Source: Escherichia coli
GTDB lineage: Bacteria > Pseudomonadota > Gammaproteobacteria > Enterobacterales > Enterobacteriaceae
Length of the DNA stretch: 64,000 nt
Reading direction: 5' to 3' (one strand)
NCBI RefSeq assembly: GCF_050920415.1
Contig: NZ_CP169309.1
Below are positions 13,882 to 45,701 of this stretch, in pieces. Below the pieces are notes generated by a model, which was not told where the DNA came from, made no database searches, and saw only the letters and a program-made list of their open reading frames with translations. How positions within the stretch are numbered: position 1 is the first letter of the stretch; each line of letters begins with the position of its first letter. The position numbers were made by a program, and so were the translations under genes.

Positions 13882-13900
13882 GCCTGACTTTATCTGATTT

Positions 13901-13940: not shown

Positions 13941-14813
13941 TTACCAGCGACCGGAAGCACCGCCACCGCCAGAAGAACCGTCACCTCCGCTAAATCCGCC
14001 ACCACTTGAGCCGCCACCAGAACCGCCGCTGTCTGAATGATAACTTCTACCTGATGCTTTTTTCTGTGGGACACATAACCAGGTAAAGACCATAATGATG
14101 GTGAAAGTAAAAAAGAAGGAAAATACAGCAATGGAAAAAGTTTGATCGGAGAACAGGAATAAATCTATAAGATAGACTGTTGAAATACAAACACTGCTTT
14201 TAAATGCCCGACAAAAATTATTGCCTTGATGAAAAAACCAGAAAGGGAAGAACATCACTGCAAATACCCAAAAAATAGCAAAGTAGTAATGATCACTGGA
14301 AGACGCTGATTCACTTTCTGAAGGATTAGACGAATATTGGTGTTGTGAAGTGAGTTGGTTATTCAAAGCGATTATAGCTAACTCTCATCCCTTAGCTAAT
14401 TTTTGTTTTTTAAAGGCGGGTATCATGATGTTACGGATGATATTGCCAGCCAGAGCATCGGTTACCTTTTCTTCCAGCCCATAACCTACCTGAATGCGGA
14501 CAGTTCGATCCGACCAGGCAACAACGATCAGTATCCCATCATTACGTTTGGCATCTCCTAAACGCCAATTGTCAAAAACCCTTGTAGCATATTGTTCAAT
14601 AGAATCGCCTCCGGTGGATGGCACTATTAATACAGCGACCTGTGCCCGTGTTTTTTGTGTAATATCCTGCAGCTGTTGTGTCAGTGATTGTTGTTCAGAC
14701 GTGCTTAAGGTACCAGTAATATCGGTCACCTGTTGGCGCAGCTCCGGCACAGCAATTTGCTGGGCAAGCACAGGAAGGCACCATAAAGTGAGTAGAAAAA
14801 GGATTATACGCAT
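13941..14813 (-). pseudogene. YgcG-like TPM-domain membrane protein, copy 3, interrupted by an in-frame TGA
   Basis: ORFs 14385..14825 (signal peptide + TPM domain) and 13941..14366 (TM helices + Gly/Ser tail ...GGGGASGRW) are in the same frame, separated only by TGA at 14385..14387 and 6 sense codons; the downstream ORF begins with TTG, not ATG. Confidence 0.6.
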
Positions 14814-14818
14814 AACGA

Positions 14819-15966
14819 TCACCAACGGTCGGATGAACCGCCACCGCCAGAAGAACCGCCGCCACCGCGGAAAGAGTTTTTCGACGAAGAACGAGAATGA
14901 GCATTACGATTCCCCGTTTTCTTGTTGCTTTTATGCCCTGATCCCAGTTTAAGATTGCCAGTAAATTTGGCCACAATGATCAGCAGAACGATGCCAGCAA
15001 TGGTTATTGGGCCGATAAAATGATCAATTAGCCCAATAATTGTTGAGATGAACGCAATATCTTTATTACTGGCGAATACCAGGCACCATCCCACAACAAT
15101 TATCAGCAGCACGACAAACAATGAATTTCGTCCTGATTCACGAACCTGCGGAGCCTTCTTTTGTTTTTTCACTTTAGCGTTTTTATTTTGGGGGGCCAGC
15201 ATCATAGGAAATGTGCGGCATATATTAAAAACTACCGCGAGACGCTGCCAGCAGATTGCTGCGAAAAATAAACTAAAACAAACGACCGATACCCGCCGAA
15301 TGATGACATCGTCCTGAAAGGAGAAAAACCAGACCATAGGAGTAATCATCGATATCATCCATATGCCAGGCCCGGGACGGCTGGTAAATCGCCAGAGGAC
15401 AACGATGGCAACGATCATCAGTAATGTCCAGGCAAGACATGGCAGCGAGCGTTGCGGATTAGCAAACAGATGATTGGCTAAAGCATCCAAAGGGCTAAGA
15501 TTCGCTTTTATATAGGTAAACTGTGCGATGCCTTCAATTCCCTGCGTTAACCCGGAGAAGAGATTATTTTTTTGAATTCCGGTTGCATATGGTAATGAAC
15601 AATTTGCGCAGCTTGTTCCGGTGGCAGCATCTCTTCCAGTCCATGCCCAATCTTCATTGACGCCAGCCCTTCCGGCCAAACGACGAGAATTAAGATACCT
15701 TCGCCGTACCGCTTCTCTCCAACAGGTTTCCAGTGATATAACCCGTAGCTTTGCGAGGCTGCAAGTTTAATGTCTTTACCCCCAGTGGTCAGCGTTACCA
15801 ACACGGCAACCTGAAAGTGGTTTTGCTGCTCGAGAGTCTGTAATTGTTGAGTTAAAGCAGTTTGTTCTTCTGTCGTTAATGTCCCGGTTAAGTCAGTTAC
15901 TGAAGGCAATTGTTCAGCGAATGCCTGGAAACCACATAGCATCAGAAGTAAGAGAAAAATACGCAT
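14819..15966 (-). pseudogene. YgcG-like TPM-domain membrane protein, copy 2, frame-shifted at an A7 run
   Basis: ORF 15547..15966 (signal + TPM domain) and ORF 14819..15679 (5 TM helices + tail ...[15 protein letters not shown]) overlap in different frames; similarity to the intact paralog continues across the shift (LFSGLTQGIEGI vs LAGGLQKGISDI); switch point is the T7/A7 tract at 15567..15573. Confidence 0.6.
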
Positions 15967-15980
15967 TTCAATTCCTTTTG

Positions 15981-16919
15981 TTACCAGCGCCCGGAGGCGC
16001 CACCGCCGCCAGATGAACCGCCGCCGCCGCTGAAATTATCATTGTCAAAAGAGGATGAAGAGGAAGATGACGACGATGATGAAGAACGCCTGGAGGCCGA
16101 GTTACTTCTTTCGTAATGTGACGGTCGGTTGGCACTGCGCATCGAATCCCGAACCTTTTTGCCGAAGGGGGTAAAAGCGATGGCGACAGCCAGGAACGGT
16201 GTGGCGAAGCAGAGTAATGTTGCGAGTACTCCCCAGCTTCCGCTGAAACCTGCTATAGGTAAAACAAAGGCCAGTACAATAGCTGTGAAGCAAATTAGTC
16301 CCAGCGTTTTGACATATCCTCTGGCGGAAATAAAGGTCAGTACTATTGCCCAGACTAACAAAGCCCACCAACCGCTAAAGGGCAAAGGGTGATCGGTCGG
16401 TGTTATCGCTTCTAAATTATTCCCCGTCAGACGATTATCAATATCGCTTATTCCCTTTTGCAAGCCGCCAGCAAGGTCGCCATTTTTAAATGCCGGAATA
16501 ATACTGTTGCGAATAATTTTCCCGGACTGCGCATCCGTAATAACGCCTTCCAGTCCGTAACCGATTTCAATACGCACGGTATGATCCTGCCAGGCGACTA
16601 ACAGTAGAACGCCATCATCGCGGTCTTTATCTCCGGGTTTCCAGCTATCGAATACCCGCGTTGCGTACTGCTCGATGGTTTCATCGCCTGTGGTTTCAAC
16701 CACTAACACGACCAGTTGTGCGTGGCTTTTTTGCGTCAGCTCTTTAATCTGATTGGTCAACGTATTTACTTCATCGTTCGTCAATTTGCCGGTTAAGTCA
16801 TTCACATACCTGGGTGATTCAGGCACTGGAATTTGTATGGCAAACACAGATGAACAAAAGAAAGCCATAAGGAAGATAAAATTTCGCACAGGACTTCCTC
16901 GCTTAATGAGCATTAGCAT
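15981..16919 (-). CDS. YgcG-family TPM-domain membrane protein, intact copy (312 aa)
   Basis: signal peptide, TPM domain, 3 TM helices, poly-Ser tract, C-terminal [15 protein letters not shown]; probably the ygcG ortholog but which copy is orthologous cannot be decided from sequence alone. Confidence 0.8.
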   Translation of the reverse strand: MLMLIKRGSPVRNFIFLMAFFCSSVFAIQIPVPESPRYVNDLTGKLTNDEVNTLTNQIKELTQKSHAQLVVLVVETTGDETIEQYATRVFDSWKPGDKDRDDGVLLLVAWQDHTVRIEIGYGLEGVITDAQSGKIIRNSIIPAFKNGDLAGGLQKGISDIDNRLTGNNLEAITPTDHPLPFSGWWALLVWAIVLTFISARGYVKTLGLICFTAIVLAFVLPIAGFSGSWGVLATLLCFATPFLAVAIAFTPFGKKVRDSMRSANRPSHYERSNSASRRSSSSSSSSSSSSFDNDNFSGGGGSSGGGGASGRW

Positions 16920-18687: not shown

Positions 18688-18899
18688 GAGTTCCCCACGT
18701 CAGCGGGGATAAACCGCTATACGAAGTTATTAGGTCCGAAGAGGAGTTGAGTTCCCCACGTCAGCGGGGATAAACCGTTTACGTGTTATCGCGCACCGGC
18801 GACGGTGTGGAGTTCCCCGCGCCAGCGGGGATAAACCGATTCAGCAAATAGCGAATTTCATAAATATGATGTGTTCCCCGCGCCAGCGGGGATAAACCA
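18688..18899 (+). CRISPR. type I-E CRISPR array, 4 repeats / 3 spacers (ygcE-queE array)
   Basis: 29-bp repeats at 18688, 18749, 18810, 18871 with 32-bp spacers (period 61); repeats 1-2 are the variant GAGTTCCCCaCGtCAGCGGGGATAAACCG, repeat 3 is canonical, repeat 4 is degenerate (GtG..., terminal a). Confidence 0.9.
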
Positions 18900-19352
18900 C
18901 CATATAACCCGTTATCTCTTTCTCAAGTTTTTATATTAGCTGTACTTGTAATAAGCAACATATCCACATAACACCTCATGTTCAAAATAGTTCCCCATGC
19001 CAGATAAGTTCACAATTATCGATACAAAAAATCAAATTTAATCAAAGTGTTATATGTATAATCCTTAAACCGTTAAGAAATTTTAATATATTATTTTTTT
19101 AATATTAATTAATGCCTGTTAATTTTTTCTTTAGAATAACAGTGTATTTTTTAAGCTTGTTATTCATTGATTAAGTAATAAATCTGGAAGTTTGTCTTTG
19201 TTTTGAGGCTAATGAGTGGTTTTACATAACCGCCTCTATACGCTGTTGATGAATAGTTCTTATGAATAAAGATATCCAGTTCATACTTTAAGTGAAAATT
19301 GATAAAGTGCGATTCGTATTGTCTTTTATTCTAAAGACATCGAGTGTAGTTA

Positions 19353-44513: not shown

Positions 44514-45701
44514 GAGTTCCCCGCGCCAGCGGGGATAAACCGCTCGCGTATACTCTCTGCCAACGTCTCCAGATGAGTTCCCCGCGCCAGCGGGGATAAA
44601 CCGGCGGGATTATCGGCACTGACGTCGGCGCTGTGGAGTTCCCCGCGCCAGCGGGGATAAACCGGGTCGCTTCCATATATGAACCTTGAGGATTAGGAGT
44701 TCCCCGCGCCAGCGGGGATAAACCGGTTCCATGCACTGCCCGCAGTGTCAGCCGTACGAGTTCCCCGCGCCAGCGGGGATAAACCGGTAAATCATACGTT
44801 GGCATCAGTATTTTTCTCGAGTTCCCCGCGCCAGCGGGGATAAACCGACTCCGCGCCATTTGAGAATTCTCAGTTCTGCGAGTTCCCCGCGCCAGCGGGG
44901 ATAAACCGCTACTGCTGTCAGACGGCAGGGCAAAACAGCGGAGTTCCCCGCGCCAGCGGGGATAAACCGGACGTGCGGATGCTGTTTCTGGTTTTACCTC
45001 CGAGTTCCCCGCGCCAGCGGGGATAAACCGTTTTTTCTCAGCGTCTGGCAGAGCTAATCGCCGAGTTCCCCGCGCCAGCGGGGATAAACCGGTGTCAAAT
45101 TTCATGTAATTGATGATCCAGCTGAGTTCCCCGCGCCAGCGGGGATAAACCGGGTATTTCTCGTTAACACGGTCGTATCAAAACGAGTTCCCCGCGCCAG
45201 CGGGGATAAACCGAGGGGTTGCAACCATAGCCCTTAGTTGATTGCGAGTTCCCCGCGCCAGCGGGGATAAACCGCCAGTGGATTTTAATAAACTCTCCAG
45301 CGAGCAGAGTTCCCCGCGCCAGCGGGGATAAACCGTTCGCCACGTCAGGCGTGATTTCCTGCACTGAGAGTTCCCCGCGCCAGCGGGGATAAACAGGGCG
45401 CGTCTGCGCCCGCTAGGACTCGTGTCAAGAGTTCCCCGCGCCAGCGGGGATAAACCGGGAGTTCAGACATAGGTGGAATGATGGACTACGAGTTCCCCGC
45501 GTTAGCGGGGATAAACCGCCCGGTAGCCAGGTTTGCAACGCCTGAACCGAGAGTTCCCCGCGCCAGCAGGGATAAATCGGCAACGACGGTGAGATTTCAC
45601 GCCTGACGCTGGTGTTCCCCGCATCAGCGGGGATAAACCGGGCGCACTGGATGCGATGATGGATATCACTTAGAATTCCCCGCCCCTGCGGTAGAACTCC
45701 C
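44514..45701 (+). CRISPR. type I-E CRISPR array, 20 repeats / 19 spacers
   Basis: 29-bp repeat GAGTTCCCCGCGCCAGCGGGGATAAACCG at 44514 and every 61 bp to 45673; 32-bp spacers; variants in repeats 15 (AAACaG), 17 (GCGttAGC), 18, 19 and a degenerate terminal repeat. Confidence 0.97.

Follow-up and report, generated by a model that had tools for sequence, protein, structure and literature searches.

An A8-to-A7 contraction very probably makes the second TPM-domain gene of one Escherichia cryptic clade I sublineage an ordinary frameshift pseudogene

Results

Genes at the locus

The window, by which we mean the whole 64-kb stretch of DNA that was analysed, carries gudPXD, barA, rlmD, relA, mazG, pyrG and eno, followed by a cluster on the minus strand, queE, a CRISPR array and ygcE, and from there on by type I-E cas genes, a second CRISPR array, iap and cysDNC. 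The minus-strand cluster between eno and queE consists of a LemA family gene (PF04011; 16903..17505), which is the first gene, and of three TPM genes, in the order LemA, TPM copy 1, TPM copy 2, TPM copy 3. Copy 1 (15981..16919, minus strand), which the sequence-only reading had used as the intact paralogue, is an open ORF of 312 aa. In every strain examined, PGAP annotates the segment 16218-16889 of this gene as "incomplete, missing C-terminus"; no stop, however, interrupts the 312-aa ORF of copy 1, which extends to the Ser/Gly-rich tail typical of the family, and the flag looks like an annotation artefact. Copy 3 (13941..14813, minus strand) is the orthologue of K-12 ygcG and is a pseudogene, with a TTA to TGA nonsense mutation at 14385-14387. 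Searching the literature on ygcG, the TPM domain and LemA yielded no study of what this cluster does.

Between positions 13900 and 17600 the window is 100% identical to the RefSeq complete genome of E. coli MFDS1022581 (NZ_CP169399.1). In this identical record RefSeq/PGAP describes copy 2 as "frameshifted" and copy 3 as having an "internal stop", and the 50 kb annotated contain no pseudogene flags beyond those of the three TPM genes. Over the first 50 kb that were compared, the window differs from MFDS1022581 by seven extra spacers in the type I-E arrays (one at ~18717-18778, six at ~44726-45001) and by two SNPs, and the A7 tract described below is common to both. The spacer and SNP differences show that the window and MFDS1022581 come from two distinct isolates of one clone. 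The exact truncated product of copy 2 is also found in strain 10290, which belongs to Escherichia cryptic clade I (Okuno et al. 2023, PMC10100065), and on this ground we assign the window to a sublineage of clade I.

The AT-rich intergenic segment at 19100-19152, on the way from queE and the CRISPR array to ygcE, was found to differ in one related assembly, AP025751 (locus L027), where three A runs have other lengths than in the window (A6/A5, A6/A8 and A7/A6, net zero). The other assemblies in which this segment is covered (L024, L025 and L026) agree with the window, and the differences are due either to genuine hypervariability of the segment or to errors in AP025751.

Reading frames and protein features of copy 2

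Copy 2 (14819..15966, minus strand) is 1148 nt long, compared with 1149 nt in intact genes. Its upstream ORF (15547..15966) codes for 139 aa, comprising a signal peptide and a truncated TPM domain. An A7 run, which reads as T7 on the plus strand, lies at 15567..15573 in the minus-strand context GAATTC-AAAAAAA-TAATCTC, and the codons around it read CCG GAA TTC AAA AAA ATA ATC TCT TCT CCG GGT TAA, hence the upstream ORF ends in EFKKIISSPG and the premature TAA occupies 15547-15549. The downstream part (14819..15566) is open in the -1 frame for about 250 codons, which encode the end of the TPM domain, four to five hydrophobic segments and a Gly-rich tail. The ORF containing it (14819..15679, minus strand) is in the -1 frame relative to the upstream ORF (offset 287 nt, i.e. 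2 mod 3); its translation includes KNNLFSGLTQGIEGIAQ and IQKNNLFSGLTQGIEGIAQ and continues to the Gly-rich end. The tryptic peptide NNLFSGLTQGIEGIAQFTYIK belongs to this frame. The sequence-only reading had placed the A7 run exactly where copy 2 changes frame, and both the coordinates and the frames are as it had claimed. Only ten homopolymers of at least 7 nt occur in the 64-kb window, and the chance that the junction interval of ~15 nt overlaps one of them is ~0.3%, thus the presence of the A run at the junction is mechanistic rather than accidental.

If one A is added to copy 2, an uninterrupted 382-aa protein is obtained. This repaired protein aligns with copy 1 (312 aa) in a single BLASTP segment covering residues 1-190 (E 3e-28, 33% identity) that crosses the junction at about residue 132, which bears out the proposal that the two ORFs were formerly one gene and that similarity to the paralogue runs across the switch. 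The junction peptide EFKKNNLFSGL, predicted from the two frames, matches intact orthologues exactly. Pfam PF04536 (TPM) covers residues 23-149 of the repaired protein (E 3.3e-21, model positions 1-124 of 125), so that the frameshift falls inside the domain and removes its last ~17 residues, and the 139-aa product lacks every hydrophobic segment as well as the Gly-rich tail. The repaired protein has the layout of YgcG-like TPM membrane proteins: an N-terminal signal, C-terminal hydrophobic segments and a Gly-rich tail. Five TM helices had been proposed; Kyte-Doolittle analysis gives four clear hydrophobic segments, and the fifth, read by eye, is weaker. An NCBIfam search found no family for copy 2, and for its neighbouring genes gave only sub-threshold Psb32 and MamQ matches. 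We also considered separate production of the membrane part from an internal start, and rejected it on the ground that the starts chosen by gene callers are inconsistent (128, 176, 179 and 199 aa) and none of them is conserved.

Ancestral state of the tract

The closest orthologue in a complete genome, that of clade I strain 2013C-4282, is 98.9% identical to copy 2 and intact (382 aa). Its tract, GAATTC-AAAAAAAA-TAATCTC, is A8, and one A is the only length difference between the two genes. The loci with intact 382-aa orthologues include L002, L004 and L026, of which L004 and L026 have A8 at the equivalent place. A still closer relative is L026 (GCA_040837165.1), a sister lineage reached through the exact LemA protein of the window: its copy 2 shows no substitutions, has A8 and is called as a 382-aa gene. 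As the copy 2 of L026 is the same as that of the window apart from A8, the allele of the window is an A8-to-A7 contraction. An exact-sequence protein look-up missed the repaired 382-aa protein although L026, which is in the same collection, encodes it, and negative results of this look-up were therefore not used. In NRG857C the orthologue is likewise intact (382 aa), with a tract of a different kind, GAATTC-G-AAAAAAA-C-AATCTC, referred to as G-A7-C below. Among intact alleles dN/dS is ~0.2 in both halves of copy 2, which indicates that copy 2 is a functional gene elsewhere.

Distribution of tract lengths

With an 87-nt query spanning the tract, this allele was identified in 151 complete E. coli genomes, of which only MFDS1022581 had A7. 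The other 150 showed one difference from the query each, and in all 39 of the matches listed the length was that of A8, read either as 88 nt or, for alignments that cover 86 of the 87 bases of the query, as 87 nt. A further 952 complete genomes carry the in-frame G-A7-C allele, 720 of them exactly; the sampled near-exact matches with full coverage span 87 nt, and thus represent substitutions, not indels. Altogether ~1100 of 5426 complete genomes have copy 2, in frame, and ~4300 do not have it. The absence of copy 2 from most E. coli indicates that the gene is dispensable.

At least eight other assemblies, produced in separate projects, had the A7 tract of the window without change. None of the A7 loci (L009-L013, L024, L025, L027 and L028) differs from the window anywhere in the TPM cluster, and the accession series of the assemblies include GL872043 (the M863 scaffold), AEXD01, AEZI02, JZDN01, AP025751, DACAOM01 and AAXECF01. 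The exact 139-aa product occurs in 63 contigs, including those of Escherichia sp. 10290 and E. coli M863. When contigs with an identical LemA were read, 19 of the 24 were in A7-type places and five in the A8-type place; one representative per place was read directly, and 15 of the 24 were grouped as similar places. All nine loci read from the A7 sublineage, standing for the 19 contigs, had A7, and there were no substitutions in copy 2 among the A7 carriers. L026, the A8 relative, differs from the A7 type by linked SNPs at window positions 14773, 14223 and 13512 and by ~30 in and just upstream of ygcE. Tract length thus tracks the flanking SNPs, i.e. it follows descent and does not behave like a switch. 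The comparison of tract lengths across strains, which had been suggested as a check, confines A7 to one near-clonal sublineage, with A8 or G-A7-C elsewhere. The sequence-only reading had regarded a lack of tract-length variation among isolates, along with the absence of a fused product, as the sign of a simple dead pseudogene, and the lack of variation is essentially what the data show.

These results bear on two of the mechanisms that had been offered for the frame switch. Slipped-strand phase variation would mean that the locus is a contingency locus, switching reversibly and at high frequency between A7 (OFF) and A8 (ON). The product is a predicted membrane protein with a signal peptide and the gene has an in-frame A8 or A7 run, as could be expected of such a locus, and there are two further A-rich frameshift sites elsewhere (G-A6-C, and A10 in BH100, K-15KW01, HB37 and Rb-3; see below). 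Against this, the tract is monomorphic within lineages: all nine A7 loci have A7, all the A8-allele matches listed have A8, there are no exact A6 variants among the 952 G-A7-C genomes, and the one close A8 relative is set apart by several linked SNPs. A run of 7-8 nt is also short for a mononucleotide contingency tract in an enteric bacterium proficient in mismatch repair. With the tract fixed within each sublineage, we consider phase variation very unlikely.

It is even less probable, to the point of being barely credible, that the true genome has A8 and an intact gene, and that A7 is a homopolymer sequencing or assembly error. Homopolymers are classic sites of such errors, and a parallel contraction of another allele, from G-A7-C to G-A6-C, is seen in draft assemblies, about half of whose ten examined loci have other lesions. 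However, A7 recurs unaltered in eight or more additional independent assemblies and in the RefSeq complete genome of a different isolate, there is no other frameshifted gene in the 50 kb, and close A8 relatives do assemble as A8. Reproduction of A7 across projects indicates that the lesion is real and inherited.

Frameshifts of copy 2 in other alleles

The G-A6-C form is the source of a second 139-aa product (P0015), which is present in 54 contigs. The sequences (L014-L023) derive from Logan, ENA and single-contig NCBI assemblies, and the lesions noted in about half of the ten loci examined are additional copy 2 indels, or gene calls for eno or queE that are split. Exact G-A6-C was found in none of the 952 complete RefSeq genomes with the G-A7-C allele. 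The extra indels and split calls, together with the absence from complete genomes, suggest that G-A6-C is at least partly, perhaps largely, a sequencing artefact, in contrast to the well-replicated A7; the clean contigs L014, L021 and L022 might be real.

An independent frameshift of copy 2 was found in another lineage, that of BH100N, K-15KW01, HB37 and Rb-3 (L005-L008), at about nt 804 of the gene (window ~15163). Here a C is lost from GTGAAAAAACAAAAGA and two A runs fuse to form A10, which could be long enough for appreciable transcriptional slippage.

Signals for recoding at the tract

The remaining mechanisms proposed for the A7 run were transcriptional and ribosomal slippage. If programmed, these would make a full-length protein beside the short TPM-only product, either through -1 ribosomal frameshifting on C_AAA_AAA or through transcripts with one additional A. 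Both would yield the exact orthologous peptide EFKKNNLFSGL, and the run consists of AAA Lys codons. Insertions in E. coli transcripts become exponentially more frequent as A/T runs get longer (PMC5574713), which can be cited in favour of the transcriptional route; by the same dependence, A8 transcripts are expected to be rare for a run of 7 nt. Bacterial surveys of functional slippage in transcription dealt with runs of nine A/T, with eight suggested in a few taxa (PMC1088944), and the 7-nt run of copy 2 is shorter than these. The heptamer, formed by the zero-frame codons TTC AAA AAA, is imperfect, with C as its first base: the A-site tRNA can re-pair perfectly, but the P-site tRNA would have a first-position mismatch. 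Reading of the 30 nt upstream of the tract revealed no SD-like element (neither GGAGG nor AGGA), and the 87 nt downstream fold no better than shuffled sequences (-16.3 kcal/mol vs. a shuffle mean of -16.8; z = 0.17, not significant). Furthermore, the two-ORF layout is limited to one clone, and ~1100 complete genomes have the gene in frame. With ancestors in frame, no stimulators and a run of only 7 nt, programmed slippage, be it ribosomal or transcriptional, seems to us extremely improbable.

Discussion

The ancestral state, the distribution of the tract lengths, the reproducibility of A7 and the truncation of the domain were observed directly, and with these in hand we regard it as very probable that copy 2 is an ordinary, stably inherited frameshift pseudogene, which arose by a one-base A8-to-A7 deletion in one clonal lineage. 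Among the five mechanisms offered from the sequence, indel mutation is the one that agrees with the data: the closest intact orthologues have A8, and the window has one A fewer. One A was lost from the coding A8 run, presumably by replication slippage. A near-clonal sublineage of Escherichia cryptic clade I appears to have acquired the contraction in a single event and to have passed it on stably since then. Translation is predicted to stop now eight codons past the tract, giving a 139-aa product without the end of the TPM domain and without the membrane-spanning part, and copy 2 has probably lost its function through this truncation. RefSeq/PGAP already annotates copy 2 as a frameshifted pseudogene.

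It could be argued that the 250 downstream codons, which are free of further lesions, point to retention of the gene by selection. As the A7 carriers show no substitutions at all in copy 2, decay has had no time to set in, and the intact downstream frame is uninformative on selection; that this frame is still open is explained by the recent age of the lesion.

It must be noted that the A7 allele is not necessarily a complete null. In E. coli reporters, unprogrammed -1 events can suppress single-base deletions at levels in the percent range (PMC10861913), thus the A7 allele may still give some full-length protein. It could be a leaky pseudo-pseudogene, in which unprogrammed slippage restores ~0.5-5% of the full-length TPM protein and with it a residual function; RNA polymerase could add one A, or the ribosome could slip by -1 on AAA AAA. 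We think that this is rather unlikely, and nothing suggests that there is selection for leaky rescue.

Copy 2 can be compared with several known systems. In E. coli dnaX programmed -1 frameshifting takes place on A_AAA_AAG, with an upstream SD sequence and a downstream hairpin. Copy 2 shares with it the -1 direction and the presence of AAA codons for Lys where the shift takes place, but its C_AAA_AAA is imperfect and is accompanied by no SD-like element, no significant structure and no conservation. Contingency loci of Neisseria, Haemophilus and Campylobacter resemble copy 2 in that a coding homopolymer sets the frame of a predicted envelope protein, whereas the copy 2 tract is short and has no length polymorphism within lineages. 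Rescue by slippage on poly(A) is known for endosymbiont genes, IS elements, Shigella mxiE and T. thermophilus dnaX (Baranov et al. 2005, PMC1088944). There too the A run is at the junction of two overlapping ORFs, and a protein like the orthologous one is regained when an A is inserted into the mRNA; the runs of these systems, however, are at least nine (occasionally eight) nucleotides long and the layout is conserved in IS-element homologues (PMC1088944), while copy 2 has a run of seven and a layout unique to one clone. The pseudogenes that PGAP reports with homopolymer indels have in common with copy 2 the loss of a single base, the intact relatives, the truncated product and the restriction to one lineage; we see no material difference from these, the lesion of copy 2 being very young.

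Copy 2 is not the only gene of the cluster that has been lost. The LemA-TPM cluster is decaying in the lineage of the window, as the adjacent ygcG orthologue, copy 3, has also fallen to a nonsense mutation. L026, which has A8, does not differ from the window at the nonsense codon of copy 3, and on this comparison the nonsense mutation is probably older than the frameshift of copy 2.

A homopolymer at a frame switch is, by itself, no evidence for phase variation or recoding. The occurrence of a contracted tract of the other allele in draft assemblies, several of which contain evident errors, shows that surveys of tract length need high-accuracy data. The significance of the frameshift beyond annotation is little; A7 could help to recognise one sublineage of Escherichia cryptic clade I, as a marker of this lineage, and copy 2, as part of a dispensable, functionally uncharacterised LemA/TPM cluster that is lost from many E. 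coli, offers a clean case of a coding A8 run that contracted once and was then inherited stably.
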